A stretch of 64,000 nucleotides of DNA from an uncultured cyanobacterium (GTDB taxonomy: Bacteria; Cyanobacteriota; Cyanobacteriia; Cyanobacteriales; Nostocaceae). The DNA is taken from NCBI GenBank assembly GCA_963706595.1, contig OY970166.1, positions 3,552,001 to 3,616,000 of the forward strand, written 5' to 3'. The translations under genes were made by a program, and so were the position numbers. Shown piece after piece: positions 10,663 through 63,657 of the stretch; position 1 is the first letter of the stretch, and every line of letters begins with the position of its first letter. The notes under the pieces are model-generated. The model did no database searches and was not told the origin of the DNA. It was given only the letters and a program-made list of their open reading frames with translations.

Positions 10663-12012
10663 TTGACATCCTCACCGCCCTGAAAGTGCGGTGATTCCAA
10701 GAATCACTTCTTGAGCTTCCTCTTTCCGCGACCCGACTTACTAGGAGGGATTTCTCCACCCAAGCAGAGGTCGATGTCTCCAGAGGCGTTAGTTCCGACG
10801 TGACCCGCCGTACTTAATGCTTTTTCTAATATGTTCCGCGCCGCGTTCCAATCCCTGTCTTGGGTATGCCCACAATATGGACAAACATGAGTTCTAGTGC
10901 TGAGAGTCTTTTTGACAACCTCACCACAATTAGAACAATTCTGTGAAGTGTAGTGGGGGGGAACGGCAACTGTCACCACACCAAACACTTTGCCAAAATA
11001 CTCAACCCATTCACGGAACAGCGACCACGAAACGTCACTAATCGATTTAGCCAAGCGATGATTCTTGACCATATTCCGCACCTGCAAATCTTCATACGCC
11101 ACGAGGTCGTTAGACTTCACTACGCACCTTGCTGCCTTAACAGCAAAGTCTTTACGCTGGCGACTTACTTTGAGATGCTTCCGTGCAAGTCTATTTCTAA
11201 ACTTGACTCTATTTTTGGAGCCTTTTTTAGTCTTGGACATCCGGCGTTGCAACCGTTTCAAAGACTTCTCGCTTTTACGCAGATGACGCGGATTTGGAAC
11301 TGTTGCCCCGTTGCTATCGGTGTAGAAATGGTTCAAGCCAACATCAATCCCAATAGTTTTACCTGTTGGTTCTCGCCTTTCTACTCGCTCATGGTCAATG
11401 CAAAACTGGCAATAATAGCCATCGGCACGACGTACAACCCGCACTCTTTTAAACTGTTTAAGTTGGTAGAAATGCAGGTCACGAGTTCCCCAGAGTTTAA
11501 AGGTTCCTGCTTTGAAGCCATCAGAAAAAGTGATCTGCCTCCGGTCATCAGAAAGTCGCCACCCAGAGGTTTTGTACTCAACAGAACCATGTGTTTGTTC
11601 CTTCTTGAACCGTGGATATCCTTTTTTCCCTGGCTTGCCTTTTTTGCAATTATCAAAAAATCTAGCGATTGCAGACCACGCTCTTTCAGCACTAGCCTGT
11701 CTTGCCATCGAGTTCAATTTGGCTACCCAAGGGAACTCAGTATTAGCAGCAAGGATAGCACAGAACTTACTCAGGTCATATCGACCAATGCCCTTGTTAT
11801 CCATCCAGTATCTCAAGCAAGCATTGCGAACAAACCGCGCAGTTCTAATTGCTTCGTTCAGCGATTGATACTGTTCGTCTTGTCCCTCAAGTTTTGCCTC
11901 GAATACCAGCATGATGATTACGTCAGTTGCACCAACGTAATTTTATCATAATCATGAACAACAATCATAAAAAGCCGTCGTAGAACGACGGGGCTTTAGA
12001 CCCAACTCTTCG
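10663..12012 (-). mobile_element. IS200/IS605-family tnpB-only element (IS1341-type), 1350 bp
   Basis: Inserted 3' of TTAC, ends in TCAA, no TSD; subterminal hairpins AAAGCCCCGTCGTTCTACGACGGCTTT and CACCGCAC-TTTCAG-GGCGGTG. Confidence 0.93.
10704..11912 (-). CDS. tnpB: RNA-guided endonuclease TnpB
   Basis: RuvC motifs GIDVG, AYEDL and DRDWNAA; zinc ribbon CSNC/CPYC. Confidence 0.95.
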   Translation of the reverse strand: MLVFEAKLEGQDEQYQSLNEAIRTARFVRNACLRYWMDNKGIGRYDLSKFCAILAANTEFPWVAKLNSMARQASAERAWSAIARFFDNCKKGKPGKKGYPRFKKEQTHGSVEYKTSGWRLSDDRRQITFSDGFKAGTFKLWGTRDLHFYQLKQFKRVRVVRRADGYYCQFCIDHERVERREPTGKTIGIDVGLNHFYTDSNGATVPNPRHLRKSEKSLKRLQRRMSKTKKGSKNRVKFRNRLARKHLKVSRQRKDFAVKAARCVVKSNDLVAYEDLQVRNMVKNHRLAKSISDVSWSLFREWVEYFGKVFGVVTVAVPPHYTSQNCSNCGEVVKKTLSTRTHVCPYCGHTQDRDWNAARNILEKALSTAGHVGTNASGDIDLCLGGEIPPSKSGRGKRKLKK

Positions 12013-20943: not shown

Positions 20944-22192
20944 GTGGCGTGGCAAGCTTAAAATGTTGCATTAGAATTAACGATTTTGTGAGTTTCAAAC
21001 ACTGGGTAAAGATGTTTAAGTTTTATACGAGCATCATCAGTAGTAAAACGCCAAATAACTTTACCTGCGGTGCGGTTACGTTCGTTTTGCCAAGCGGTCA
21101 ATTCTCTAGATAGTTGACAAATACTAGGAATTCGTCGGTCTAGGCACTGTTGGCTTAAAATGCTTAATTCAATTTCGGCAACGTTGAGCCAGCTTCCATT
21201 GCGAGGAGTGTAATAAATCTCCAGTCTCCTAGCCAAGCGGTGAGCTTCTGGTGCGGGAAAAGCTTCGTAAAGTGATGTAATGCTATGAGTGTTGAGGTTG
21301 TCACATAGCAATTTGACCTTGGTGGCTTGGGGATAGTCTTCATCTAATAGTTGACGGACTTCTTCGGCCCAATCAACACGAGTCCGATGAGCGCGATTGC
21401 TGACACGTCGCCAACCTCTGATCGGGTCAAAAAACATGAACAAAGCTTGGACTCCTTCGCGAGTATAGTGATAATCTTCTTTTGCATCTTCACCCGGTTC
21501 CATTGGTTTTGGCTCATAAAGATGCCCTGTTAATTGTCTAGAAGCTTCATCCATACAGATTAAAGGTTCCAAATCACTATGTTCTTGGCTGTAGAGGTCT
21601 AAAACTACTTCCATTTGAGAGACAAAACGTGCTATATCCCGTTCGGGAATACAAAATCTTTCTGTTTTCCAGGGGCGTAATTTGTTTTTTTTAATGTCTT
21701 TCTAATCGTCTCCCTAGAAATTTCTATGATAATTTTTCGGTTTTGAATTTCTTGCGTCAGTAATCTGAGACTCCAGTGTGCTTGCCCCGTGGGAGGTTCA
21801 GAACAACATAATGCAATGATTTGGGCTTCAGTCTGACCATCTATCTTGCTGACATTTGGTGGTTTTAACCTCTGATGACGATTTAAGGCAGGTTCTTCTC
21901 CCTGTTCGAGGAACCTCTTCCTGATTCTTGCCACCGTATTGCGATGAACCCTTAACCCTATACTTATTTCTTCATCTGTCCATTTTTTCCTTGCACCCTC
22001 TCCCTCATCGCACATTAACAACACCTGTGCGTGCAATATTTTTTTGGCTGGGGCCTGTCCGTTGCGAGCGATCGCTTCTAATCTTTTTCTTTTCTCTGTA
22101 TCTAATATGACTTTATCTCTACGACCTCTCCCCATCAATTTCTCCTTTTTTTTCCTCCATTCTAATGCACTATTTTAAGCTTGTCACGCCAG
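20944..22192 (-). mobile_element. IS630-family insertion sequence
   Basis: ~31-bp imperfect TIRs (GTGGCGTGGCAAGCTTAAAAT..TGCATTAG), TA flanks, split transposase. Confidence 0.93.
20958..22138 (-). CDS. IS630 transposase, expressed through a -1 frameshift
   Basis: HTH ORF 21632-22138 and DDE ORF (MDE, CDNLNTH, SWLNVAEIE) are joined at an A8 run (T-run at 21685-21692), giving LKKNKLRPWKTERFCIP. Confidence 0.9.
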
Positions 22193-37515: not shown

Positions 37516-40500
37516 CTACTGACAAATTCCCCTCTCATCCTCACTCAAATTCGAGTTGTGCTGCAAATAATCATCCAACCAAGCGCAACCCCGCACCAGC
37601 AATTCATCTAAACTCTCCACAGGCCACAACCGCGCTGTCCGGTCATCGGATGCGGTGGCGATGGTTTTGCCGTCCGGGCTGAAACTCACACTATTGATTT
37701 CGCCTTGATGCCCTTTGAATTCTTGTAACAGTTGCCCGTTTAGAGTCCACAACCGCGCTGTCCGGTCAGAGGATGCGGTGGCGATGGTTTTGCCGTCCGG
37801 GCTGAAACTCACACTATAGACTATGCCCTGATGCCCTTTGAATTCTTGTAACAGTTGCCCGTCTAGAGTCCACAACCGCGCTGTCCGGTCAGAGGATGCG
37901 GTGGCGATGGTTTTGCCGTCCGGGCTGAAACTCACACTCCAGACCCAACCCTGATGCCCTTTGAATTCTTGTAACAGTTGCCCGTCTAGAGTCCACAACC
38001 ACGCTGTCTGGTCAGAGGATGCGGTGGCGATGGTTTTGCCGTCCGGGCTGAAACTCACACTAATGATTTCGCCCTGATGCCCTTTGAATTCTTGTAACAG
38101 TTGCCCGTCTAGAGTCCACAACCGCGCTGTCTGGTCAGAGGATGCGGTGGCGATGGTTTTGCCGTCCGGGCTGAAACTCACACTCCAGACCCAGCCCTGA
38201 TGCCCTTTGAATTCTTGTAACAGTTGCCCGTCTAGAGTCCACAACCGCGCTGTCTGGTCAGAGGATGCGGTGGCGATGGTTTTGCCGTCCGGGCTGAAAC
38301 TCACACTCCAGACCCAGCCCTGATGCCCTTTGAATTCTTGTAACAGTTGCCCGTCTAGAGTCCACAACCGCGCTGTCTGGTCAAAGGATGCGGTGGCGAT
38401 GGTTTTGCCGTCCGGGCTGAAACTCACACTATTGATTTCGCCTTGATGCCCTTTGAATTCTTGTAACAGTTGCCCGTTTAGAGTCCACAACCGCGCTGTC
38501 CGGTCAGAGGATGCGGTGGCGATGGTTTTGCCGTCCGGGCTGAAACTCACACTATTGATTTCGCCTTGATGCCCTTTGAATTCTTGTAACAGTTGCCCGT
38601 TTAGAGTCCACAACCGCGCTGTCCGGTCAGAGGATGCGGTGGCGATGGTTTTGCCGTCCGGGCTGAAACTCACACTATTGATTTCGCCTTGATGCCCTTT
38701 GAATTCTTGTAACAGTTGCCCGTTTAGAGTCCACAACCGCGCTGTCCGGTCAGAGGATGCGGTGGCGATGGTTTTGCCGTCCGGGCTGAAACTCACACTA
38801 ATGATTTCGCCCTGATGCCCTTTCAATTCTTGTAACAGTTGCCCGTCTAGAGTCCACAACCGCGCTGTCCCGTCAGAGGATGCGGTGGCGATGGTTTTGC
38901 CGTCCGGGCTGAAACTCACACTAATGATTTCGCCCTGATGCCCTTTCAATTCTTGTAACAGTTGCCCGTCTAGAGTCCACAACCGCGCTGTCCGGTCATC
39001 GGATGCGGTGGCGATGGTTTTGCCGTCCGGGCTGAAACTCACACTCCTGACTATGCCCTGATGCCCTTTGAATTCTTGTAACATTTGCCCGTCTAGAGTC
39101 CACAACCGCGCTGTCCCGTCAGAGGATGCGGTGGCGATGGTTTTGCCGTCCGGGCTGAAACTCACACTCCTGACTATGCCCTGATGCCCTTTGAATTCTT
39201 GTAACAGTTGCCCGTTTAGAGTCCACAACCGCGCTGTCCCGTCAGAGGATGCGGTGGCGATGGTTTTGCCGTCCGGGCTGAAACTCACACTAAAGACCCT
39301 GCCCTGATGCCCATGAAATTGGTTACGTTCTTTAATATCACTCAGAATAGTATGCAACGCATAAATCGGGCTAATAGCTGGGTATTCATCCAGAGGGCGA
39401 TTATCTTTAACTAAAGTTTTCAACTCTTTACCAGTTTTGACTGCTGTTACTAGCCCTTCTAATGGGGTAAATTCAAACTGTCTAATCGCATTAACTCCCG
39501 CCCGTTCTAATTCTGTTCCCTTTTGCGCTTCTTGTTGGGCTGCTTGCGCTAATTGTGCAGCTTGCTTTGCTGTTTGTTGGGCTTCTTGCGCCTGTTTCAG
39601 AGTAATTTCTGCCTGTGCAACTTGAGACTCCGCTTGCTGTTGTTGTTGCTGTGCTTGTTGCGCTTTCTCATCAGCCGTTCTCACTCTCTCCGTAGCCGTT
39701 TTAATTCTGGCTTCCGCTTCGGCATTTTTCTTTTCTAATGCTGCGGCTTGCTGATTTACCTTCTCTAAGTCTGTTTTAGCAGCAGCTAGGTTTTGGGTAG
39801 CTTTGATATTTTCTTTTTGTGCGTCCTTAAACTTTGCTTCTGCGTCCTTACTTTTAATTTCTAAATCTCGCGCTGTTCTTTGTAATTCTGCCTGTTTTCT
39901 TTCCGTCTCTTGCAAATTTTGAGTTGTTCGCCGATAATCACCTTCAGTTTTGGTTAATTTTCGTTCTGCTTGTTGTTGATTTTCATTAGCTTTACTGGCT
40001 GTACCAACTTGAATCACTGCATAAACAGAAGCCATCCCTGAAACTATTAATAAAAACACTGATAAACGAGAACTTATCTTAAACCGTTTCTGCCCTTCCC
40101 TAATCTTTGCTTCAGCTTCCTGGTTAGCAGCAGCTAATATTTTCTTAGCTTCTTGTTCCTGTTTTAACTGCTCTTCAGCTAGAGCTAATTTAGCTAATAA
40201 TTCATTATCCTGTTGTTGTCGCACAAAAGAAACCAAATAATCATGCACCAACTGATACCTATCAGCCGGGGATTCTGGTAATAGCAACACCAAACCAGAT
40301 TGCACAAAAATATCTAATATCAAATCTAATCTATCAGTTTCTGCTGCTAACTTTGCTGTCAACTCAGCCCTAGTTTTCAAAGGACGAGTGCCATTTTCAT
40401 CTGTGAGTAAATATAAAATCAATCTCGCAGCGCGTTCATTTTCTGCCCCACAATCTTTAATAACCGATTCTAAAAATCCTTCAACCAGATTTTCTTTAGT

Positions 40501-42798
40501 CCCAAAATCTTGATACTGTTTTAAAGTTGTAATTTTCTCAGTTTGCAACTGCATCCCCACAAGTTGCAACTCAATTGGGCGTACCTCCCCAATCTTCCCC
40601 GCTAAATCCTGCACTAATTGGTCAATTAAAGCAGCTTCTAAAGAAGATTGATTTCTAGTTTCCTCTGCAATCACACCTTCTAAACCAACGCTACCACTTA
40701 AAGCAGAGTTCAAAGCCTCTCTCCTCGTAGGAGAGAGGTTTGGAGAGAGGTTTTGTCGAGTCAAAGTTTCAATAACAGTCGTAGCATCTTCCGGTGAAAA
40801 ATTACCCAAATAATAGCGAATATTTTTAGCCAGAATATTATTATTAATTACCCCTAAATCAAACAGCCGTTCTAACTCTAATAAATAATGTAAATAATCT
40901 TCTCGTAAAGACAGAATCACCTTCACAAAAGGAATATCTAAACAAATATGTAGGAACTCATAAAAACTGCGCCTATCACCTTGGTCTGGATAAACAAAGA
41001 AAAACTCTTCAAATTGGTCAAAAATTAACACCGTTAACAGATTGCGGTCAGCATTTTTTCGCAACTCTGCCACAATAGCATCTGGAGAATTGAGAGAACT
41101 AGCATTTAACGACTGAATATTTGATTTCAAACACTGTCCCAACATTTCCACCCAATTTGTGTAAACTCGCAACAAAATAGGTAGAACATCACGTCCCTCA
41201 ATTGGTTTTTGTTGCAATGCAGGTATTAAACCACCTTGTAAAATTGAACTTTTACCCACACCTGACTGACCATGAATTACAGTCAATTTATGCTCAGTCC
41301 CGCTAATTCTTTCCCGCAATCGCTTCACATCTTGACTCCGACCAGAAGCGGCTATTTCTTGAGCTACACTATCTGTATTTTCTATTTGTAACTGTGCCGG
41401 ATTTATAGCTTGTTTCTGGGGATTTAAATAAGATGCACCCACAAAAGCCCGAAATCCATATTGATGTTCAATTTGTAATTGTTCTTGCTTGAGATTAAAA
41501 GCTAAACGATATTCATTTTTGTTAAAGTAGAGTAAACGTAATCTTTCTAAAATCAAGATATATAATTGCGGATCATATTGCGGATTACTTGCAGTTTTGG
41601 CAATTTCTAAATGCTCAATTGCGGCTGTAACTTCACCTAAACCCTGATCAGCACAAGCTAAAATAAATTGATATAAACTAAGTTCATAAGGTGCTAAACT
41701 AGAGATATCATTTAATATTTGCAGTGCATTATTCGCCAATTTCCTCGCATCTTGCCAGCGTGACTCTTGTAGCGCTACCTCTGCCAAAAAGCCATGATCT
41801 TGTGCTAATTGTCGGAGAGTGCCATATTCTTCATGTAGTGGCAGAGCTTTTTCAGCTAGGCTTTGTAAATCTGACCATGCTGTTAAATGTCGCAGCGCTT
41901 CACCCAAATGATTAATATATTTAGCGCTTAAATCTAGACGCTGTATTTCCTCAAAAATTTCTAAAGCATCTTGCAGATAATTTCTCGCAGTTTCCCAAGA
42001 TATTTGATTATCTAAGGGATTAATTACAGCTTGCCGAGAATAGAGTAAACCAATATGAATTAAAACTATACCTTGGCGTTCTTTGAAATCATTTATTGTT
42101 CGCCATCTAGTCAAACTTTGCTGATAATGTACTAAAGCCAAATCAAGTTTATCATAAAGATAATCATGAAATCCCAAGACAAATTCCAGACTAGCGGTAA
42201 TAGCAAAATTTAAAACTTCCCTACGCTGTTTTAAATCCTGATGAGCAGATTTTAATTCCTGGCAAATTTGCAGAGTGGGACGCACATCACCAGTAAATAC
42301 TTCACCAGTTGTTTGGCGTAATAAATTAAATAACTCAGGGGTAGGAGTTTCAAACTCAATAATACTAGCCCAATTTTCCAAATCTGCGGCTAACCGAATC
42401 AACTTTTGCAGAGTTTGGTCATTCACCCACAACAAAATAGGGAAAGGAAATTGTTTACTAAATTGCTCCCGCACTCGGTTAGCCGCAGTCAGAACCGTAT
42501 CAATATCTTTAACTGATTCCAACCCAAAAACCATTAAAGCTGGTGGTTGTTCATCTCCCAGTTGTTCTTTAATAGCCGTGTAAAGAGTTTTCACAGATGC
42601 AGGTAAAGTAATTTCGCGAATTTGTACAGGAGATAATTGGTGCAGTCGTTCAACCATACGCTGACGCAAAACCGCATAATTACAGCGCAATAAAATCAGT
42701 GAAAATTCACCTTCAGATAAGGTAATTGCTCTCACCAAACTTTGCAATGATTGCTGATTATCAACTTCTAAATTTTCCGGTTCATGCTGATTACTCAT
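37516..42798 (-). CDS. NLR-like protein: N-terminal domain, TPR-like helices, STAND (nSTAND1-like) NTPase, TM, coiled coil, 14 WD40 repeats
   Basis: Walker A GQSGVGKSS, Walker B LIFDQFEE, YQLVHDYL motif; 14 repeats of 41 aa (GH...LW). Confidence 0.92.
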   Translation of the reverse strand: MSNQHEPENLEVDNQQSLQSLVRAITLSEGEFSLILLRCNYAVLRQRMVERLHQLSPVQIREITLPASVKTLYTAIKEQLGDEQPPALMVFGLESVKDIDTVLTAANRVREQFSKQFPFPILLWVNDQTLQKLIRLAADLENWASIIEFETPTPELFNLLRQTTGEVFTGDVRPTLQICQELKSAHQDLKQRREVLNFAITASLEFVLGFHDYLYDKLDLALVHYQQSLTRWRTINDFKERQGIVLIHIGLLYSRQAVINPLDNQISWETARNYLQDALEIFEEIQRLDLSAKYINHLGEALRHLTAWSDLQSLAEKALPLHEEYGTLRQLAQDHGFLAEVALQESRWQDARKLANNALQILNDISSLAPYELSLYQFILACADQGLGEVTAAIEHLEIAKTASNPQYDPQLYILILERLRLLYFNKNEYRLAFNLKQEQLQIEHQYGFRAFVGASYLNPQKQAINPAQLQIENTDSVAQEIAASGRSQDVKRLRERISGTEHKLTVIHGQSGVGKSSILQGGLIPALQQKPIEGRDVLPILLRVYTNWVEMLGQCLKSNIQSLNASSLNSPDAIVAELRKNADRNLLTVLIFDQFEEFFFVYPDQGDRRSFYEFLHICLDIPFVKVILSLREDYLHYLLELERLFDLGVINNNILAKNIRYYLGNFSPEDATTVIETLTRQNLSPNLSPTRREALNSALSGSVGLEGVIAEETRNQSSLEAALIDQLVQDLAGKIGEVRPIELQLVGMQLQTEKITTLKQYQDFGTKENLVEGFLESVIKDCGAENERAARLILYLLTDENGTRPLKTRAELTAKLAAETDRLDLILDIFVQSGLVLLLPESPADRYQLVHDYLVSFVRQQQDNELLAKLALAEEQLKQEQEAKKILAAANQEAEAKIREGQKRFKISSRLSVFLLIVSGMASVYAVIQVGTASKANENQQQAERKLTKTEGDYRRTTQNLQETERKQAELQRTARDLEIKSKDAEAKFKDAQKENIKATQNLAAAKTDLEKVNQQAAALEKKNAEAEARIKTATERVRTADEKAQQAQQQQQQAESQVAQAEITLKQAQEAQQTAKQAAQLAQAAQQEAQKGTELERAGVNAIRQFEFTPLEGLVTAVKTGKELKTLVKDNRPLDEYPAISPIYALHTILSDIKERNQFHGHQGRVFSVSFSPDGKTIATASSDGTARLWTLNGQLLQEFKGHQGIVRSVSFSPDGKTIATASSDGTARLWTLDGQMLQEFKGHQGIVRSVSFSPDGKTIATASDDRTARLWTLDGQLLQELKGHQGEIISVSFSPDGKTIATASSDGTARLWTLDGQLLQELKGHQGEIISVSFSPDGKTIATASSDRTARLWTLNGQLLQEFKGHQGEINSVSFSPDGKTIATASSDRTARLWTLNGQLLQEFKGHQGEINSVSFSPDGKTIATASSDRTARLWTLNGQLLQEFKGHQGEINSVSFSPDGKTIATASFDQTARLWTLDGQLLQEFKGHQGWVWSVSFSPDGKTIATASSDQTARLWTLDGQLLQEFKGHQGWVWSVSFSPDGKTIATASSDQTARLWTLDGQLLQEFKGHQGEIISVSFSPDGKTIATASSDQTAWLWTLDGQLLQEFKGHQGWVWSVSFSPDGKTIATASSDRTARLWTLDGQLLQEFKGHQGIVYSVSFSPDGKTIATASSDRTARLWTLNGQLLQEFKGHQGEINSVSFSPDGKTIATASDDRTARLWPVESLDELLVRGCAWLDDYLQHNSNLSEDERGICQ
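37620..39320 (-). repeat. 14 near-identical 123-bp WD40-coding tandem repeats
   Basis: GGATGCGGTGGCGATGGTTTTGCCGTCCGGGCTGAAACTCACACT recurs every 123 bp. Confidence 0.95.
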
Positions 42799-42872
42799 AT
42801 AGCAATCCTATTTGAATGGTATTAGATCCCCGACTTCTTTGAGAAGTCGGGGATCTGGGTCACGCGACTACT

Positions 42873-44174
42873 CTAACTCTCCTCGTTTGCTGCCAAAATC
42901 GGATTGATATCAAACCAGGAACCTTCCTCATTACGATATTCAAATACAAACATACTGCGGAGCAAAAGTTCGTATTTCTCATCACCTCTAAAGCTTTTGC
43001 GTTCAGTCACCTCACTGAGTAATTCCCACTCATCTTCAGTAATAGCCAAACTTAGCTCATTACACCTTTGTTTTATCACTTTTTCCACGCACTCACGGGA
43101 CAAAGGTGGGTCTTCTCTCTGCACACAGCGAAATAATAACATCAACAAGTTACGCAGATGACCACCGCTAACTCGGCACAGTCGCTCTAAACTATCAGCC
43201 TCCTCAAATACCTCTGTAATTAAATGCTGGCTTTGTTCCCAACTCACTTCAGGAAATGCTCTAGCCATGACCATCTGTTGCAGTAGTGTAATTCCTGGGA
43301 GAAAATCACCCCCATGACGGAACTTAACCGGAACCATTGGCAAAACTTTCGGGTCTACCCCAAACCGATTTGTTAACCTTCCTAAAGCGTTGGAAAAAAT
43401 TAATACTAGGGGAATTGTGTAGACAACATGACAATTTAACTGGTTTAGCTGTTCGCCACGTTCCACAAACAGATATTCTGGCTGGTAATAGGAACCCCCT
43501 GGTTTCATAGAATTATCTATGCGGTCAAGGTTATCAACTATCACCACCAGTCCTTCTTTACCTTGCTGCTTCAGTCGTTCTATGGCAGGTTTGAGCAATT
43601 CTTGGTTAATTGATTCTAAAATGCCGTTAGTGCGCGGTTCTAAATATTGCCGTAATTGCGATCGCAGTTTTGGACTATCTTTAGTTTTAGCTGTAATCTT
43701 GCCAATACCCACAGATAACTCGGCTTCTACGCCAATATCTAACGGTGTTTGTAAAAAATCGACAATTTCCTTAAATAAAGTTTGAAAATATCCCGGTTTG
43801 AGGTTAATTGTAATTGCTTCCAGACTTAGACTGACTTCTCTAGCTATAGCCAATAAAATATCTGTAATATCCACATCTGCCATATCCAGGCTATGGCTAG
43901 ATTCAAAGTAAACTACATGAAACCCCTGCTTTTCTAATTCTTTTTTCAGTCGCAGCAGTTCAGTAGACTTACCACAACCAATATGTCCTGTAAATAATTG
44001 ACAGGTAGGTTCATCAGGAGAGAGACGGGTAATAGTCCGCCCTAGTTCTTCAATAATCTTGGCACCACGTACTTCAGAAAAATCAATATAATACTGTAGG
44101 TCTTCAGGTTTGCTGACTACCAGTGTTTTGGCAGGGTTGCACGCCTTAAAAAATTTACTTACATTCAGTTTCAT
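42873..44174 (-). CDS. P-loop ATPase upstream of and co-oriented with the STAND-WD40 gene
   Basis: Walker A GHIGCGKST, Walker B VVIVDNLDR, SGGHLR motif. Confidence 0.88.
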   Translation of the reverse strand: MKLNVSKFFKACNPAKTLVVSKPEDLQYYIDFSEVRGAKIIEELGRTITRLSPDEPTCQLFTGHIGCGKSTELLRLKKELEKQGFHVVYFESSHSLDMADVDITDILLAIAREVSLSLEAITINLKPGYFQTLFKEIVDFLQTPLDIGVEAELSVGIGKITAKTKDSPKLRSQLRQYLEPRTNGILESINQELLKPAIERLKQQGKEGLVVIVDNLDRIDNSMKPGGSYYQPEYLFVERGEQLNQLNCHVVYTIPLVLIFSNALGRLTNRFGVDPKVLPMVPVKFRHGGDFLPGITLLQQMVMARAFPEVSWEQSQHLITEVFEEADSLERLCRVSGGHLRNLLMLLFRCVQREDPPLSRECVEKVIKQRCNELSLAITEDEWELLSEVTERKSFRGDEKYELLLRSMFVFEYRNEEGSWFDINPILAANEES

Positions 44175-45258: not shown

Positions 45259-46851
45259 CTATCCATTACCCACATCTTTCTTAACATGACTGTAAGCTAG
45301 ACTGTGTAGGGATGATAGAAGTTTCTAAGTCAGCGCGATCGCCTGTGGAGAGGGTTTGCCGATGTTTAAGCAGAAACATCAAGTGGAGAAGCGGGATGGA
45401 GAAGTTTCCAGGTAGCGGCGATATCGTGTAATCGCCGTAGACCCCGCCAAATAGTTTTAACTCCCGGCTCACCATCTCCATTGCGAGCCAGAAAGCCGCC
45501 GAGAGTGGCAATCATTCGCACGGCTTCTCGTAAAGACGGAGGTTTTTTTGGTGGTATGGGATTCTTGTTGACAGTGGCACATAAAGATTGCCATTCATCA
45601 GTTTCTAAAACGGTATTAGAGGGTAAATCAGGGTGAACTCGTGAGGAGTAAGTTAGCCATAACAAACGCCAAGCGACAACAGTATAAGTGGCTAGTGCCA
45701 TATTGATGCGGTCAGCAGTGGACAATTGTAATTGCTCAATTCTACACCCACTTTTTAAAGTGTAATGATAGCGTTCTATCAACCAACGATAAGTGTACCA
45801 TTGCACACAACGTGCGGCATCCTGTAAGTTATGAATCTCAAGGCTGGTGAGCAATAACCAACTAATAGGATTGATTCCGGGTGGTGAATGATCTTCTGAT
45901 GCCAGAATTACTTGTAACTTTACAGGTTTTAGCTGTGAACGCCCGATATGATGTGATGGGACTTGGATATCAACACTAGTGAATCGAATTGTGAGTATCG
46001 CTTTTCTAGCACTATGTTCTGGACTACGTTTGACCTCTGCTGTCAGTGTTCCATGGGGTTCAATTTGGCGGATTGCTTGATGTAAATACTTGGCACAGTG
46101 GTCAACTTTGCGGTTGTGAGTCCCACGGATTAACAAATGGGAATTTTCTGAACGTTTGAGATTAAATAGGTCAAATATATCTGCTTCTGAGTCCCCTATT
46201 GTCACTACTTGAATCTCTGATGGGACAGAATTTTGTGTCACATCTAATCCATCTAACCAGCGCTGACTTTCTTTTAAAAGTGTTTCCCTTTGACGACGTT
46301 TTTTCGCTATGCCCAAATTTTCGGGTGGTCTAGCCCATACCTGCTGTTCCAGAATTCCTAACGGCACTCCATTACTTGTAGCTGCAAATGTTGAATGTAC
46401 TTTCAATCCTGATGATTGACGATGGTCAAGATAACCCACTCCTTTCGTTTTGGGGTGGTCTGTTAAATCTATGTTGGTTGTGTCTTGAATCGCTAAGACT
46501 ATTTGATGTTCTTTGATTCTTTCGATTGTGCTGTCTATATGCCCTTGACGAATTTCACTGGCGGGAAAATATGGTGATTTCCAAAAGTTATATACTGCTT
46601 TGGTTGCTGCCATATTTCCACTTGCTTGTGGTACGCTACAATCTGGCTGTGCGGCTAAGTCCTCTACTATCTTGATTAACCGCTTGTTTCGACGAACGTC
46701 TCCTAGGTCTACCCCAGACAGTTCCTTGGCTGCCCACTTTTCCATGATTCCATTACCCGATTCTGTTCTCTCCACACTATACTTAGCAAGCTTTTTCCGC
46801 TTATGTTAAGTATCTTGTTTGATTGTTAAGAAAGATGCGGGTAATGGATAG
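45259..46851 (-). mobile_element. IS4-family (IS50/Tn5-like) insertion sequence
   Basis: 28-bp TIRs CTATCCATTACCC(A/G)CATCTTTCTTAACA; 9-bp TSD TTACTAAGG (45250-45258 and 46852-46860). Confidence 0.95.
45366..46775 (-). CDS. IS50/Tn5-like DDE transposase
   Basis: LGDVRRNKRL, IQDTT, GDSEAD, YTYRWLIERYH..LK (YREK) and LGGFL..PG motifs. Confidence 0.95.
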   Translation of the reverse strand: MERTESGNGIMEKWAAKELSGVDLGDVRRNKRLIKIVEDLAAQPDCSVPQASGNMAATKAVYNFWKSPYFPASEIRQGHIDSTIERIKEHQIVLAIQDTTNIDLTDHPKTKGVGYLDHRQSSGLKVHSTFAATSNGVPLGILEQQVWARPPENLGIAKKRRQRETLLKESQRWLDGLDVTQNSVPSEIQVVTIGDSEADIFDLFNLKRSENSHLLIRGTHNRKVDHCAKYLHQAIRQIEPHGTLTAEVKRSPEHSARKAILTIRFTSVDIQVPSHHIGRSQLKPVKLQVILASEDHSPPGINPISWLLLTSLEIHNLQDAARCVQWYTYRWLIERYHYTLKSGCRIEQLQLSTADRINMALATYTVVAWRLLWLTYSSRVHPDLPSNTVLETDEWQSLCATVNKNPIPPKKPPSLREAVRMIATLGGFLARNGDGEPGVKTIWRGLRRLHDIAATWKLLHPASPLDVSA

Positions 46852-57298: not shown

Positions 57299-59410
57299 AT
57301 GACTTCCTTGATTCGCTTCTTGATGTGCGCCCCTGACCACTACGATGTGGACTATGTAATTAATCCCTGGATGGAAGGGAATATTCACAAGTCTTCGCGC
57401 GATCGCGCCGTGGAACAGTGGCAAAAACTCCACCACATCCTTAAACAACACGCCATTGTCGATTTAGTAACTCCCCAGATTGGTTGGCCTGACATGGTAT
57501 TTACCGCCAATGCTGGTTTAGTCCTGGGGAAAAATGTTGTCCTCAGTCGATTTCTCCACAAAGAACGTCAGGGAGAAGAACCTTTCTTCCAAAACTGGTT
57601 TGAGGAAAACGGTTACACGGTGAATTTACTGCCAAAAGACTTACCCTTTGAAGGTGCTGGAGATGCACTTTTAGATCGGGAAGGACGTTGGTTATGGGCT
57701 GGATATGGTTTTCGCTCAGAATTAGATTCTCACCCTTATTTAGCTAAATGGCTAGATATTGAGGTGCTGTCTCTACGACTAATTGATGAGCGCTTCTATC
57801 ACCTAGATACCTGCTTCTGTCCTTTGGCTAACGGCTATTTATTGTATTATCCCGGCGCTTTTGATGCTTATTCTAACCGCTTAATAGAAATGCGAGTTGC
57901 GCCAGAAAAGCGCATAGCAATTACCGAAGCTGATGCTGTCAACTTCGCCTGTAATACGGTGAATGTGGAAAGCATCGTGATTATGAACAAAGCCAGCAAT
58001 ACTTTAAAAGCACGTTTAACAGATTTTGGTTTCCGAGTCATTGAAACCCCACTGACGGAATTCCTCAAAGCCGGTGGTGCTGCTAAATGTCTCACACTGC
58101 GTGTCACAGAACCACTAGACGCAGAAATTCATGCTAATGTCTCGGTCGAAAGCCGCGTGATTCGCATGGAAGGCCATTTGCTGGACTCTGGTTTGATTAA
58201 CCAAGCTCTAGATTTGATTGTGGATACTGGTGGAAGTTTCCAAGTGATGAATTTTAACTTGGGAGAACAACGCCAAAGTACATCTGCGGCTGAGGTACGC
58301 GTTTCTGCACCTTCTCATGAGGTGATGGAAGAAATCATCTCGCAGTTAATTGATTTGGGTGCTGTCGATTTACCCCAAGATGAACGAGACGCTAAATTAC
58401 AGCCTGTAATTCAAGCTGGGGTGGCTCCTGATGATTTCTATGTGAGTACAATTTATCCTACGGAAGTGCGGATTAATGGTGAATGGGTGCGGGTAGAAAA
58501 TCAGCGCATGGATGGCGCGATCGCCATTACTCAAACTGCCAATGGTTTAGTAGCTAGATGTAAACTATTACGTGACTTAGAAGTGGGCGATCGCGTAATT
58601 GTCGATGTCCTCGGTATCCGTACTATCCGCAAAACTGAATCCCGTGAACAGCGTAATTCTCAAGAATTTAGCTTTATGTCCTCTGGGGTTTCCAGCGAAA
58701 GACGTGTGGAAATTGTGGTGGAACAAGTCGCTTGGGAATTACGTAAAATTAGGGATGCTGGCGGTAAAGTAGTTGTCACTGCGGGTCCTGTGGTGATTCA
58801 CACAGGCGGCGGCGAACATTTGGCGCAACTGATTCGGGAAGGATATGTACAGGCGCTCTTGGGTGGGAATGCGATCGCAGTCCATGACATTGAGCAAAAT
58901 ATGATGGGGACTTCCCTCGGTGTAGATATGAAGCGGGGTGTAGCCGTGCGAGGTGGGCATCGCCATCACCTTAAAGCCATTAATATTATCCGCCGTTATG
59001 GCAGCATTGCCAAGGCTGTGGAAGCGGGAGTGGTTAAAAATGGTGTGATGTATGAATGTGTATCTAATAATATACCTTTCAGCCTCGCTGGTTCCATTCG
59101 CGATGATGGTCCTTTGCCTGATACCCAAACGGATTTGATTAAGGCACAGGAGGAATACGCCAAACTAATTGAGGGTGCGGAGATGATTTTGATGTTGTCT
59201 TCAATGTTACACTCAATTGGGGTGGGAAATATGACTCCGGCTGGGGTGAAGATGGTCTGTGTGGATATTAATCCGGCTGTAGTTACTAAGTTAAGCGATC
59301 GCGGTTCTGTGGAATCTGTGGGTGTGGTGACAGATGTCGGTTTGTTCCTGAGTCTGTTGATTCAGCAGTTGGAAAAGTTGACAAATCCTTATGTTGCTAG
59401 TGTAGGTTAA
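57299..59410 (+). CDS. agrE: Arginine dihydrolase / ornithine cyclodeaminase
   Basis: Amidinotransferase domain (INPWM, FYHLDTCF, GGAAKCLTL) fused to a LOR/SDH-like C-terminus; 703 aa. Also called argZ. Confidence 0.93.
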   Translation: MTSLIRFLMCAPDHYDVDYVINPWMEGNIHKSSRDRAVEQWQKLHHILKQHAIVDLVTPQIGWPDMVFTANAGLVLGKNVVLSRFLHKERQGEEPFFQNWFEENGYTVNLLPKDLPFEGAGDALLDREGRWLWAGYGFRSELDSHPYLAKWLDIEVLSLRLIDERFYHLDTCFCPLANGYLLYYPGAFDAYSNRLIEMRVAPEKRIAITEADAVNFACNTVNVESIVIMNKASNTLKARLTDFGFRVIETPLTEFLKAGGAAKCLTLRVTEPLDAEIHANVSVESRVIRMEGHLLDSGLINQALDLIVDTGGSFQVMNFNLGEQRQSTSAAEVRVSAPSHEVMEEIISQLIDLGAVDLPQDERDAKLQPVIQAGVAPDDFYVSTIYPTEVRINGEWVRVENQRMDGAIAITQTANGLVARCKLLRDLEVGDRVIVDVLGIRTIRKTESREQRNSQEFSFMSSGVSSERRVEIVVEQVAWELRKIRDAGGKVVVTAGPVVIHTGGGEHLAQLIREGYVQALLGGNAIAVHDIEQNMMGTSLGVDMKRGVAVRGGHRHHLKAINIIRRYGSIAKAVEAGVVKNGVMYECVSNNIPFSLAGSIRDDGPLPDTQTDLIKAQEEYAKLIEGAEMILMLSSMLHSIGVGNMTPAGVKMVCVDINPAVVTKLSDRGSVESVGVVTDVGLFLSLLIQQLEKLTNPYVASVG

Positions 59411-59582
59411 GGAAATAGATGTTCCTTATTGCGGACATCATTTACTTTATGGGTAATTATGTATGTCCGCAAACTACAATGAGTTTTAACTTTAGCTCCA
59501 AACTGTTCCTATGTTTTATGACCAGACGAAACCACAATAAGCTTATATGATTTAGTTCCTGAAATGAGTAAATCTAAATTAT

Positions 59583-61709
59583 ATGGTACAAGAAGATTCC
59601 TTAAAGTTTAGTATTCAAGAAATTGGTGCAACTTCTCAGCATTTAAAAACTGTCATTAACTTAGGTAATGCTAATTCAGAAACCCTTGGCTTTTTACCCT
59701 ATGGAGCTTTTGAAAGACTAGCGGACGAAGGTCGTATTATTGGTTTTATTGTTCCAGAATTAGGTTGTGTGGGATATCTGCTTTATGGTATTAGTCGTCG
59801 TAATTACAGAGTAAAACTTACCCATCTTTGTGTAGATAAAAATTGGCAAAAAAGAGGAATAGCCAAAAAATTACTCCAGTATTTAAAAAATAAAACTCAA
59901 CATTTATACGGTATTCTTTTATCATGCCGTCGTGATTATAATTTAGATGGAATGTGGGCAGCACTTGGTTTTGTAGCTCCTCATGAAAGACCAGGAAAAA
60001 GCAAAGAAGGCAGTATTTTAACTGAGTGGTGGTTAGATTATGGTCATCATAGTTTACTCACTAATCTTGCCTATCAAGAAACTGAATCTAGATTATGTGT
60101 TGCTATTGATGCTAATATTTTCTTTGATTTAGTAGATGATGAAAAGTTTGATGAGGAAGGAAAAGAATCTAAAGTTCTAATTTCTGATTGGCTAGATTCA
60201 GAAATAAAATTATGTTTAACTGACGAAATTTTAAATGAAATTAACAGAAATCCAGACAGTAGAAAAAGAGAAAAATTACGTACAGCAAGAAGTCATTTTA
60301 CAAACCTTCCTTCCACCCAAAAAGAATTTGATAAACTATGCCAAACTATACGTAGATTTTTTCCTGAAAAGATGACTCCTAGTGATGAATCAGATTTACG
60401 TCAAATCGCTAGAGTTATTAGCTCTCAAATTAATACTCCTTACTTTGTTACTAGAGATAAACGTTTATTAGGTATTGAAGAAGAGATTTATCAAGAATTT
60501 AATTTGACCATTATTCATCCCATTGATTTAATTATTAAATTAGATCAATTACGTAGAGAAAATGAATATCAACCAGAGCTTTTAGGTGGAACTAATATCA
60601 AAGAAAAGCGCATTCAGAGTAAAGAGATAGATTCAATAATTGACCTCTTTTTATGTTATTCTCAGGGTGAAAAAAAACCAGACTTTAGAAAAAATATTCG
60701 CAGTTTAGTTTCAAATACTAAACAAATTAAAGGTTTTACAGTTAGTCAAAATGAAGAATTTATAGCTCTGATAATCTATGATAGATCAGAAGATAGAGAG
60801 TTAAATATTCCGGTTTTTCGATTCAGAAATACTAAAATTACTCCTACTCTTTTACGGAGGTGTATTTTTGAATGTTTCTCAACTGCTGCTAGTGAAAATA
60901 GAGAATTCACCAGAATTACTGAAATATACTTGGATGATACAACCGTTAAAGCACTGTCTGAAGATGGTTTTTTAAAGACTAAATCTGGATGGTTAAGAGC
61001 TAATTTAGCTATTTCAGAAAATGCAGTAGATATTTCTTCGTATATTACTAACTTGTGTAAAAAATCACCTAAAGATTATGACAAATATCTTCCATTTGCA
61101 GATATTTTATTAAATCAAGATTTACTTCAAAAACCAGAAATCATGGCAGATATTGAGAGAATGCTTTATCCTGCCAAAATTACTGATGCTGAAATTCCTA
61201 CTTATATTATTCCTATTAAATCACGTTGGGCTAAAGAATTATTTGATAAAGAATTAGCAGAAGAAGGAATATGGAGAGCTAAAGAACAATTAGCACTGAG
61301 ACGTGAGGTTGTTTACTACTCTTCAAAGCGAAAAATGAAATATCCAGGAAGAATTTTATGGTATGTTACTCCATCTCCTGACGATAAAAATAGTTCTGCT
61401 ATTCTAGGAGCTATTAGAGCTTGTTCTAGACTAGATGAAGTAACAATTGGTAAACCCAAAGATTTATATAAAAAATTTAGAAGATTAGGCATTTACAGTT
61501 TTCAAGATGTTTTAAAAGCTGCTAATAACGATTTAGACAAGGAAATCAAAGCTGTTAAATTTAGTGATACTGAGTTATTTGAAAATCCTATAAAATTTGC
61601 AGAAATAAAAATAATACTAAATCGATCTATTCAACTTCAAAGTTCTATAGAAATTTCTCCAGAAGAATTTAAAATGTTATATAATAGAGGAAATTCAATG
61701 TCTATATAA
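59583..61709 (+). CDS. GNAT acetyltransferase-PIN nuclease fusion with a probable C-terminal PUA-like domain
   Basis: HLCV..WQKRGIA (GNAT motif A); IDANIF, EI, SD and FVTRD (PIN); IPIK..WA..LF, YY and ILWY (PUA/EVE-like, inferred). Confidence 0.8.
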   Translation: MVQEDSLKFSIQEIGATSQHLKTVINLGNANSETLGFLPYGAFERLADEGRIIGFIVPELGCVGYLLYGISRRNYRVKLTHLCVDKNWQKRGIAKKLLQYLKNKTQHLYGILLSCRRDYNLDGMWAALGFVAPHERPGKSKEGSILTEWWLDYGHHSLLTNLAYQETESRLCVAIDANIFFDLVDDEKFDEEGKESKVLISDWLDSEIKLCLTDEILNEINRNPDSRKREKLRTARSHFTNLPSTQKEFDKLCQTIRRFFPEKMTPSDESDLRQIARVISSQINTPYFVTRDKRLLGIEEEIYQEFNLTIIHPIDLIIKLDQLRRENEYQPELLGGTNIKEKRIQSKEIDSIIDLFLCYSQGEKKPDFRKNIRSLVSNTKQIKGFTVSQNEEFIALIIYDRSEDRELNIPVFRFRNTKITPTLLRRCIFECFSTAASENREFTRITEIYLDDTTVKALSEDGFLKTKSGWLRANLAISENAVDISSYITNLCKKSPKDYDKYLPFADILLNQDLLQKPEIMADIERMLYPAKITDAEIPTYIIPIKSRWAKELFDKELAEEGIWRAKEQLALRREVVYYSSKRKMKYPGRILWYVTPSPDDKNSSAILGAIRACSRLDEVTIGKPKDLYKKFRRLGIYSFQDVLKAANNDLDKEIKAVKFSDTELFENPIKFAEIKIILNRSIQLQSSIEISPEEFKMLYNRGNSMSI

Positions 61710-61716
61710 AATAAAA

Positions 61717-62220
61717 ATGAGTCTCATGTCTCCAAATGTACTTTTAATATCTATTCACTATGAATACGCTAATATGATATTTGAGGGTAATAAACAAGTT
61801 GAGTTTAGGCGTGTTAGACCTCGACATCTAAGTGAAGGTGATCTAATTCTTGTTTATGCAACATCTCCTGAAAAAGCATTGTTGGGAGTGCTTGAAGTAG
61901 AAGAAGTTGTGGAAATGTCTCCTAATAAGCTTTGGAATATTGTTAAAGATAAAGCTGGTATTAACCAAGAAACCTTTCAAAAATACTACAAAAATTCACA
62001 AATTGCTTTTGCTATTTTCTTTAAAAACCCGTTCAGTTTTGATTCACCAATTACAATTGAAAAACTAAGAGAAGAGTGGAAAGATTTTCGACCACCACAG
62101 TGTTATCATTATTTAAAAGATAGAGAGATAAATTTTATCAAATCAATGACAAAATATGATATTCTAGCATTATCTAATAAGTTTAGAGGTTATCAAACTG
62201 AACTATTGCCTCAAGTTTAA
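61717..62220 (+). CDS. ASCH-domain protein
   Basis: LISI..YA..IFEGNKQVEFRR (GxKxxExR) and GD...VYATSP motifs. Confidence 0.88.
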   Translation: MSLMSPNVLLISIHYEYANMIFEGNKQVEFRRVRPRHLSEGDLILVYATSPEKALLGVLEVEEVVEMSPNKLWNIVKDKAGINQETFQKYYKNSQIAFAIFFKNPFSFDSPITIEKLREEWKDFRPPQCYHYLKDREINFIKSMTKYDILALSNKFRGYQTELLPQV

Positions 62221-62308: not shown

Positions 62309-63112
62309 ATGAGTGAAACCCTGGCTGATATTGCTATACCACCGCAGTTTCCTGATCATACTCAACTACCAGAGTCTGATGGTACGTTTGTGTTAGCGAA
62401 GCGTACCGTAGGTCAGAACTTTCAAGAACATCCCCAAAGCATAATTATCACAGACTCAATAATTCAAACTTTACAAAAGTTACATCCCGATGGACAATTT
62501 TGTATAGGTCAAGATTGTGGGATTTATTGGCGCGAAACAGAACCACCAGAAAAAGGTACAGTAGCACCAGATTGGTTTTATGTCCCTGATGTCGCACCAA
62601 GATTAGAAGGTAAAATTCGCCGTTCTTATGTATTATGGCGGGAATATATTCCCCCATTAATTGCGATAGAATTAGCCAGTGGTAATGGTGATGAAGAACG
62701 AGACAAAACACCTTTACCTTTAGCTGGTAATCGTGAAGGTGCAAAACCTGGGAAATTTTGGGTATACGAAAGAGTGATCCGCATTCCCTACTATGCTATT
62801 TATGAAATTAATAATGAGAAATTAGAAGTTTATCACTTGGTAGATTTTTCCTACCAAAAAATGCAGCCCAACGAACGTGGACATTACCCAATTCCCCCTT
62901 TAGGTGTAGAATTAGGACTATGGCAAGGAAGTTATTTAAATAATCCTGAGCAACTTTGGCTGCGCTGGTGGGATTTAGATGGTAATTTATTATTAGTCGG
63001 TAAAGAAGAAGCCCAATTACAAAGACTCAGGGCTGAACAAGCAGAACACAAAGCAGCACAATTAGCAGCACGATTGCGAGAAATGGGTATTGATCCAGAT
63101 ACAATAGATTAA
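62309..63112 (+). CDS. Uma2-family (DUF820) endonuclease-like protein
   Basis: APDWFYV, IELAS, K..VYE...IPYY motifs; typical LREMGIDP tail. Confidence 0.9.
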   Translation: MSETLADIAIPPQFPDHTQLPESDGTFVLAKRTVGQNFQEHPQSIIITDSIIQTLQKLHPDGQFCIGQDCGIYWRETEPPEKGTVAPDWFYVPDVAPRLEGKIRRSYVLWREYIPPLIAIELASGNGDEERDKTPLPLAGNREGAKPGKFWVYERVIRIPYYAIYEINNEKLEVYHLVDFSYQKMQPNERGHYPIPPLGVELGLWQGSYLNNPEQLWLRWWDLDGNLLLVGKEEAQLQRLRAEQAEHKAAQLAARLREMGIDPDTID

Positions 63113-63138: not shown

Positions 63139-63657
63139 ATGCAAAGGGTTATTTTGTCAAGGGAGTTACAGGTTAATTGGGTGAGTTTTATTGCTGATTT
63201 CCTGTTGGTGGGGATGGTTTTTGGTCCTCCTATTGCTCCTTTTTTGGCTGCGTCTGATGTGTCTTTGCTGAGTAGGATTGCGGACATTATTTATTTCATG
63301 GGTAATCATGTCTGTCCGCAACCTGATATGGGTTTGGATTTAGCACCCCCGTTTATTATGGCTGTTTGTATGCGTTGCTATGGTACTGTTTCGGGGTTGC
63401 TATTTACTCGGTTTTTATATGGGGTAACTGGTGGTAAGGGTTTTTACTGGTTAAGTCAATATGGTTGGAATGGTGCGGCTTTGGCTAGTGTGTTGATGAT
63501 GGCTTATCCTTTGGAATTGGCTGCTCAGGTTTTTGGTTTGTGGGATTTTAATAATTATTTGGTGACACCTTTTGGGTTAATTACGGGTTTGGCTTGGGGT
63601 TTATTTACTATGCCGATTTTTCATCAGTCGCAGCATAATCATTTTTATAAAATTTAA
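63139..63657 (+). CDS. DUF2085-like membrane protein
   Basis: VCPQ...AVCMRCYG motif; TM helices. Confidence 0.75.
   Translation: MQRVILSRELQVNWVSFIADFLLVGMVFGPPIAPFLAASDVSLLSRIADIIYFMGNHVCPQPDMGLDLAPPFIMAVCMRCYGTVSGLLFTRFLYGVTGGKGFYWLSQYGWNGAALASVLMMAYPLELAAQVFGLWDFNNYLVTPFGLITGLAWGLFTMPIFHQSQHNHFYKI

Follow-up and report, generated by a model that had tools for sequence, protein, structure and literature searches.

Analysis of a 64,000-nt stretch of cyanobacterial contig OY970166.1 (hereafter the window, whose positions serve as coordinates throughout) led to a two-gene module encoding a 708 aa fusion protein and a 167 aa ASCH protein, which belongs to the already catalogued PIN_17 operon family. 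The large protein consists of four folded domains, namely an N-terminal GNAT (GNAT1) and a PIN domain with intact catalytic motifs, a degenerate second GNAT (GNAT2) and a tail of ASCH/PUA fold that is devoid of the motif borne by the partner. The module is strictly paired and under purifying selection, and the copy presented here is intact and recently transferred. A conflict or defence role of some kind is probable. More specifically, and tentatively, we favour a mobile anti-phage or anti-plasmid module in which a gated RNA-cutting toxin is restrained by its partner.

Domain architecture of the large protein

An AlphaFold2 model built from 107 homologues (predicted local distance difference test, 91.9; predicted template modelling score, 0.83) accounted for the whole protein with four domains and a short helical linker, and revealed no helicase or ATPase domain. 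Motif conservation was scored in the 107 homologues and in 144 independent representatives (145 minus one gapped), while the fold search for PIN and GNAT2 used a separate model of residues 166-480. The sequence-only reading of this DNA had proposed a GNAT, a PIN with its acidic residues in place and possibly a second, degenerate GNAT, and all three were recovered as folds. GNAT1 resembles Ard1-type enzymes (Z = 19.0, root-mean-square deviation (rmsd) 1.8-3.3, 140-147 residues aligned) and harbors the acetyl-CoA motif A as Q89-x-x-G92-x-A94, a strict pattern present in 106 of the 144 representatives. Further conserved stretches are LGFxPxGAF, HLCV, CRRDY and W125xxLGF. Its best fold and profile matches are generic GNATs with 8-21% identity. 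The TmcA/NAT10 writers of N4-acetylcytidine (ac4C) join a helicase/ATPase domain to a TmcA-type GNAT; the large protein differs in having no such domain, and 55 GNAT1 domains had matches to 18 Pfam families, none of which is the TmcA/NAT10 model. Neither TmcA/NAT10 nor TacT/AtaT was among the 50 fold matches listed for GNAT1, which does not exclude them.

The PIN domain, at about residues 171-314, was matched by Pfam under the cut-off (PIN_3, E-value = 0.0016) and by fold to VapC11 (Z = 12.6, rmsd 3.2, 133 aligned). VapC-type PIN domains are RNases. The acidic residues D176, E215, D271 and D292 are kept in 107, 107, 103 and 101 of the 107 homologues, respectively, and all four occur together in 133 of the 144 representatives. 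GNAT2 is visible by fold only (GNAT 3d8p, Z = 14.2, rmsd 2.4, 137 aligned), as its profile comparison with GNAT1 by hhalign gave a probability of 1%. Among the four domains, conservation is lowest here (4/138 columns at ≥90%); the motif A positions are unconserved, while R413 and F463 are near-invariant. Finally, the tail presents the fold of ZmASCH (PDB 5GUQ; Z = 16.4, rmsd 2.4, 138 aligned) and is homologous to the partner ASCH (hhalign, 96.9%). It keeps the aromatic residues W549, F554, Y578, Y579, W593 and Y594, and the G-x-K-x-x-E-x-R motif is missing. The earlier description of the tail as PUA/EVE-like held for the PUA/ASCH fold; no Pfam EVE match was found on the large protein. Both folds on which the sequence-only reading had staked itself, PIN and PUA-type, were found by structure prediction.

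The ASCH partner

The partner was rightly recognized as an ASCH protein (Pfam, E-value = 4e-7). ZmASCH is the closest solved structure for the partner (E-value = 1e-15) as it is for the tail. Residues K26, E29, R31, Y47 and Y90 are invariant in 55 partner homologues, including the Lys/Glu dyad (K26, E29) of the G-x-K-x-x-E-x-R motif in 55/55. The partner differs from YqfB in having no threonine-type motif: the YqfB-type Thr/Ser at the octapeptide position was not found in these homologues, all 55 of which have Glu29. The true start of the partner may be Met4 (61726).

In the available text on ZmASCH, the protein binds single-stranded nucleic acid (ssDNA and ssRNA) and cuts ssRNA, with contributions of Tyr47, Lys53 and Ser128 (PMC5615036). 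Equivalents of Y47, K53 and Y90 and the K/E dyad are retained in the partner, in which Ser128 is replaced by Cys. Additionally, the accessible part of a 2026 study (10.64898/2026.02.27.708502) reports ac4C removal from bacterial tRNA in vitro by 19/19 ASCH proteins, one of them ZmASCH, and an essential Lys/Glu dyad in the three GKER ASCH proteins mutated; in the assays described there, ZmASCH neither hydrolysed free ac4C nor lowered tRNA ac4C in Escherichia coli. By its dyad, the partner may be likened to these GKER-type ac4C deacetylases.

Affiliation with known systems

Matelska (2017, PMC5499597), in the portions available, lists a PIN_17 operon labelled GNAT, PIN_17, GNAT, PUA plus PUA, including loci of Trichodesmium and Microcystis (Tery_3585 and IPF_1774; Table S1, Fig. 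S6B). The listed member WP_009228208.1, retrieved by exact look-up, aligns with the large protein over nearly its full length (32% identity over 664 columns, E-value = 1e-99), and the ASCH protein encoded after it, WP_009228209.1 (148 aa), is 38% identical to our partner, aligned over residues 11-141. The PIN behind an N-terminal GNAT and within the listed boundaries of about 160-340 (PMC5499597), the GNAT devoid of motif A that separates PIN from a PUA-like domain at the C-terminus, and the downstream PUA/ASCH gene are shared as well. According to the same text, PIN_17 proteins probably lack acetyltransferase activity, the PIN-associated GNAT having no motif A. GNAT1 differs in keeping it, and the published loss fits GNAT2. 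The partner also has no helix-turn-helix (HTH) fusion, unlike the HTH-ASCH fusions in the PIN_17 table. We do not take HTH as defining PIN_17, because the text assigns these fusions to alphaproteobacteria and the 148 aa partner of a listed member aligns with ours. The sequence-only reading was correct that similar domain combinations had been predicted computationally, and it understated how much was already known, since the PIN_17 operon had been described together with its partner (PMC5499597, as far as available).

Related operons, (PIN)-GNAT-EVE + ASCH, which go back to a proposal of Iyer (2013), appear in the accessible text of Bell (2020, PMC7641849) as uncharacterised putative toxin-antitoxin systems. 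They share with our module the PIN, the GNAT-like domain, the PUA-like tail, the separate ASCH gene and the defence neighbourhoods, and differ in that ours begins with an additional GNAT that has motif A, lacks an AAA_17 ATPase and an HTH, and ends in a tail that is structurally closest to ZmASCH and has no Pfam EVE match. HsdS-ASCH and HTH-ASCH fusions are described there too, and acetylation of DNA bases was proposed by Iyer (2013), as relayed in the available parts of PMC7641849 and PMC5499597. ASCH as a reader in DNA is unproven according to further papers, as far as these were accessible.

A related candidate system among the PADLOC models is PDC-M11: the partner matches PDC-M11B (E-value = 3e-34), and M11A is matched by the region from PIN to GNAT2 and by the tail (E-value = 1e-15 and 0.003, respectively). 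The M11A match is partial, and the matched models (376-501 positions) leave GNAT1 uncovered. A PADLOC search, which the sequence-only reading had proposed, thus gave profile matches on both adjacent genes. VapBC is a type II toxin-antitoxin system with a small upstream DNA-binding antitoxin, and TacT/AtaT are GNAT toxins that acetylate aminoacyl-tRNA. The VapC-type PIN fold with its acidic tetrad and a GNAT with the acetyl-CoA motif recall both, in contrast with the multi-domain fusion, the downstream enzyme-like partner and the lack of a VapB or ribbon-helix-helix (RHH) antitoxin in our module.

Gene pairing, distribution and selection

The two genes are tightly coupled in both directions. 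In a set of 74 loci, which contains a few duplicates and near copies, an ASCH gene follows the large gene in 67 and the remaining 7 end at a contig edge, so that the ASCH gene is retained in 67/67 complete loci. Conversely, ASCH matches were found in 14 of 201 cyanobacterial genomes, and all ten strong ASCH places in these genomes have the large gene directly upstream, compared with a relative of the large gene near one of the five weak places. The large protein was matched in 16 of 61 relatives, our own genome included (2 of the 16 being weak). Its family comprises 1634 clusters at 50% identity (E-values up to 1e-30) from many phyla, with members on 3 plasmid records, and the large protein has no match in 50,697 phage records. 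Matches in the ESM Atlas are the family's own unnamed clusters only. Ratios of nonsynonymous to synonymous substitution rates (dN/dS) against four relatives were 0.11-0.37 for the four domains (0.11-0.27 for GNAT1), 0.15-0.28 for the ASCH gene and 0.33-0.94 for the helical linker, showing purifying selection on the module.

Nine shorter relatives were analysed as well, in which motif A was scored by a crude pattern test; three more loci were left out. Relatives without GNAT1, or without GNAT1 and PIN, still consist of a large protein and an ASCH, and the ASCH K/E/R motif is kept in 9/9. The motif-A pattern is missing in four of the nine large proteins, isolated and probably due to chance in three, ambiguous in one and clear, in the middle GNAT, in one (G011), while a separate GNAT gene with the pattern is present in 2/9 of the operons. 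The constant parts of the wider family appear to be the degenerate GNAT with the PUA-like tail and the separate ASCH, PIN and GNAT1 being variable, suggesting a sensor core to which different effectors can be joined. Two of the PIN-less shorter operons were seen to carry the extra stand-alone GNAT gene (L136:2913-3509 and L140:4467-4982), and one 574 aa PIN-GNAT-tail relative with motif A in its middle GNAT (L015:331-2652) has its ASCH gene convergent instead of co-directional.

Base composition and transfer into the argZ-DUF2085 slot

The gene order is argZ/agrE, the large gene, the ASCH gene, Uma2 and DUF2085, with a spacer of 7 bp between the two module genes. As described earlier from the letters alone, the pair is more AT-rich than its surroundings: module GC is 30.4% against 41.3% for the genome, a value reached in just 2 of 2111 equal-length tiles genome-wide, and GC at third codon positions is 0.15/0.19 for the module genes against 0.42 for argZ. 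Module GC is also lower than that of the flanks in 65/70 loci. The observation that the module has no HIP1 site, with five in argZ/agrE, was accurate; its use as a signal of transfer was rejected, since the count is not beyond chance (349/2111 tiles are HIP1-free, as are 60% of the 78 tiles below 35% GC).

Of 11 genus genomes, three have the module in the slot between argZ and DUF2085, five have an empty slot and three have other cargo there; the pair is not fixed at this site, and its conservation there, which would have spoken against the earlier proposal, was not found. One of the three module copies is frameshifted and split over two contigs. In the five empty-site genomes, DUF2085 and the argZ match are no more than about 50-70 bp apart. 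The other cargo is Uma2 alone (G009) or a zinc-ribbon gene with or without IS66; partial Uma2 is found in the slot in G001 and G006. The zinc-ribbon cargo (L038:2033-3127 and L039:2240-4470) is a double-zinc-ribbon protein with a hydrophobic tail, which in one genome is interrupted or followed by an IS66 transposase. Two Anabaena genomes also have the module after argZ, with module DNA 92-97% identical and argZ 81%. For the one Anabaena genome measured, synonymous divergence (dS) is 0.22-0.24 for the module, 1.14 for argZ and 0.75 for DUF2085, and Uma2 resembles the module (0.27). The low dS of the module compared with its flanks indicates a recent transfer between cyanobacterial genera into the same site. 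The horizontal acquisition suggested by the sequence-only reading is supported by this divergence, the low GC and the patchy slot.

The 172 bp between argZ and the module contain a DUF2085 remnant and no small antitoxin gene. Its first part (59428-59486) forms a 59-nt direct repeat with 63277-63335 in the intact DUF2085 gene (83% identity, spacing 3849). The intergenic stretch with the remnant is 93-97% identical in three other slot carriers, while in the five non-carriers tested similar sequence is present as the DUF2085 copy only. The remnant, which may be the trace of an old event at DUF2085, either an insertion or a duplication, is in-frame, and the DUF2085 N-terminus differs between carriers and empty-site genomes.

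Neighbouring genes in other loci

Of the 70 loci with a module call, 61 were kept after removal of 9 that were near-duplicates or fragments, and the two nearest open reading frames (ORFs) on either side of each (225 ORFs) were surveyed with Pfam. PADLOC was applied to 25 selected proteins. Neighbours from restriction, named defence or toxin-antitoxin families were found in 34/61 loci, made up of 15 with a McrB-like ATPase downstream (McrC was detected in 11 of them), 13 with other restriction or named defence genes and six with toxin-antitoxin genes; loci whose sole candidate was Uma2 (four) or a UvrD helicase (one) were not counted. Other restriction-type neighbours were Mrr, type IIG, type III, HNH, HsdR-N and DUF499, and a copy on a Calothrix plasmid is flanked by a type II restriction-modification pair and by McrBC. 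As a weak control, such families occurred in 0/36 other ORFs of the window. These neighbours and the PDC-M11 matches support the conflict or defence role that had been proposed.

In a quick tree, from which split or partial rows and one duplicate were omitted, the 13 McrB-linked proteins that were placed form one group (Shimodaira-Hasegawa-like approximate likelihood ratio test, 99-100) with the present copy outside, showing that the McrBC linkage is a sub-clade of single origin. The clade is cyanobacterial, and its McrBC-followed loci are L044, L046-L053, L088, L090, L098, L099, L103, L116 and L119. The N-terminal region of the linked McrB (~280 aa) gave no informative Pfam match in the six tested, and is possibly an undescribed specificity domain in a four-gene variant. 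McrC (PF10117) had no match in our own genome (G000, 94% complete). At two further loci (L071:8431-14117 and L076:6981-12774) the module is located between a thymidylate-synthase-like/DUF4346 gene and Mrr with a dUTPase/dCTP deaminase, a neighbourhood that suggests modified pyrimidines.

Proposed function and alternative readings

In the reading that we tentatively favour, the core of GNAT2 and tail would bind a modified nucleotide, of tRNA or of invader nucleic acid, in the aromatic pocket of the tail. Binding would license cleavage of host RNA by the VapC-like PIN, with tRNA as the likeliest substrate, and translation would stop in the infected cell. GNAT1, judged from its motif, would have acetyltransferase activity and use it either to mark the target or to impose a second block, and ASCH would quiet the toxin as long as the cell is uninfected, by taking away or hiding the trigger. 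We count in favour of this the strict pairing, the purifying selection, the mobility and the frequent restriction and toxin neighbours, together with the conserved catalytic residues, the VapC-type PIN fold, the PDC-M11 matches, the patchy presence, the low GC and the shorter relatives. As the core parts are constant while PIN and GNAT1 vary, the core would be a modified-nucleotide sensor with a regulator, and PIN the effector. Several points weigh against it. PIN is dispensable in the wider family, as PIN-less relatives exist (349-353 aa forms). Broken genes show no toxin-antitoxin asymmetry, the large gene being split in four loci and the ASCH gene in one, which equals the 4:1 ratio of gene lengths. 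The neighbour counts are not independent, because all 15 loci linked to McrB belong to a single clade (13 tested); DNA restriction systems make up many of the neighbours and are equally compatible with a DNA target; and the neighbourhood in the window itself is not a defence island. Finally, no experimental study of this operon was found in the literature searched, whose coverage is thin for subscription journals.

It is unlikely that the module is an immunity based on a reversible acetyl mark. In such a system GNAT1, of stand-alone type and unrelated to TmcA/NAT10, would acetylate an RNA base (e.g., cytidine N4); the mark would be recognized by the tail, a catalytically inactive ASCH copy, and the marked RNA cut by PIN. 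The live ASCH paralogue would serve as an enzymatic antitoxin by hydrolysing the mark, with infection tipping the balance to cutting. The invariant K26/E29 of the partners matches the dyad needed for tRNA ac4C removal by the GKER-type proteins, an activity seen in vitro with every ASCH protein in the accessible part of the 2026 study (10.64898/2026.02.27.708502); the tail has the ASCH fold minus the catalytic motif, and three arrangements of a motif-A GNAT occur, namely the present fusion, a gene of its own and a place in the middle of the large protein. However, the K/E/R motif is family-wide and persists in the shorter relatives, most of which have no motif-A pattern or a probably fortuitous one; ZmASCH, the closest studied relative, was inactive on free ac4C and in E. 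coli tRNA in the same text; and GNAT1 offers neither a TmcA/NAT10-type family nor an accompanying helicase/ATPase domain. An action on DNA is to be doubted to the same degree. There, following the proposal of Iyer (2013) as relayed in PMC7641849 and PMC5499597, GNAT would acetylate a DNA base and/or the two ASCH-fold domains would read modified DNA for the adjoining restriction enzymes, leaving PIN as a back-up suicide effector, as the McrB-like ATPase within two ORFs downstream in 15/61 loci, the restriction genes elsewhere, the Calothrix plasmid copy, the HsdS-ASCH and HTH-ASCH fusions (PMC7641849, available text) and the ssDNA binding of ZmASCH (PMC5615036, available text) would allow. Nevertheless, the McrBC link has a single origin that excludes the present copy, whose genome gave no McrC match, defence genes cluster irrespective of their target, and RNase activity is what VapC-type PIN domains are known for.

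Less likely still is a selfish toxin-antitoxin cassette of no defence value, with GNAT1 acetylating aminoacyl-tRNA in the manner of TacT/AtaT, PIN adding RNase toxicity and ASCH binding the toxin. The two-gene operon, strict pairing, mobility and plasmid copies are what such a cassette would show, yet there is no RHH/VapB-type antitoxin, the slot is empty in 5/11 genus genomes and filled by other cargo in 3, and a two-reader design would exceed the needs of addiction. A housekeeping accessory of RNA modification or of the arginine pathway, tied to argZ/agrE, is highly improbable: the module does follow argZ on the same strand, and occupies the same slot in two Anabaena genomes, but the shared slot is due to transfer, the module is missing from it in 8/11 genus genomes, and the neighbours of other homologues are unrelated. 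This last reading is already largely refuted by the patchy distribution.

Features of the module and the window

Coordinates of the module, its domains and its flanks are collected in Table 1. A scan for promoters and terminators gave no more sites than chance predicts (16, with 17.3 expected), and no tRNA gene was found in the window. Three short module pieces were among the 8 listed for one RNA run (5% of words); they come from a relative and have no bearing on expression. Elsewhere in the window, insertion sequence (IS) genes are located at 5234-6382, 10707-11912, 20961-22138 and 45369-46775 (two IS605 TnpB-type, a two-ORF DDE_3 element and a Tn5-type transposase). A 1760 aa protein with about 14 C-terminal WD40 repeats is encoded at 37519-44174 (- strand) and is preceded by a 433 aa ORF without a Pfam match; it may be akin to the cyanobacterial NTPase-WD40 proteins.

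Table 1. Features of the PIN_17-type module and its flanks (window positions).
Feature	Position	Strand	Evidence
argZ/agrE arginine dihydrolase, outside the module, conserved left flank	57299..59410	+	Pfam ArgZ-like; matched in 10/10 other genus genomes
Decayed internal DUF2085 fragment, putative left-hand footprint of the cassette	59428..59500	+	Counterpart 63277-63335 in the intact DUF2085 gene
708 aa GNAT1-PIN-GNAT2(degenerate)-ASCH/PUA-like fusion, PIN_17 type	59583..61709	+	AlphaFold2, fold searches, homology to WP_009228208.1
GNAT1, residues 5-156	59595..60050	+	Pfam above cut-off; fold match; dN/dS
VapC-type PIN, about residues 171-330	60093..60572	+	D176, E215, D271, D292; fold match
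GNAT2, about residues 338-475, GNAT fold without acetyl-CoA motif A	60594..61007	+	Fold match
ASCH/PUA-fold tail, residues 537-705	61191..61697	+	Fold match, hhalign to partner
Stand-alone ASCH (167 aa), GKxxExR (ZmASCH) type	61717..62220	+	Pfam, ZmASCH match, invariant residues
Uma2 putative-endonuclease gene, slot passenger, found there also without the pair	62309..63112	+	Pfam (E-value = 2e-18)
DUF2085 membrane protein, conserved right flank	63139..63657	+	Pfam

Significance

As a sequence discovery the module is ordinary. Its family is large and was predicted from 2013 to 2020. New in our work are the intact motif of GNAT1 and, seen in the light of the 2026 eraser data, the invariant dyad of the partner, as well as the coupling of the two genes in both directions, the single origin of the McrBC sub-clade and the transfer between genera into one slot. 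If the acetyl-mark reading were true, the writer, reader, cutter and eraser of one RNA mark would be gathered within one operon, which would provide a natural substrate context for the GKER-type ASCH erasers. The motif of GNAT1 and the dyad of the partner make this writer/eraser model testable with five point mutants, and the present copy, intact, selected and recently transferred, is a good test case for the family.

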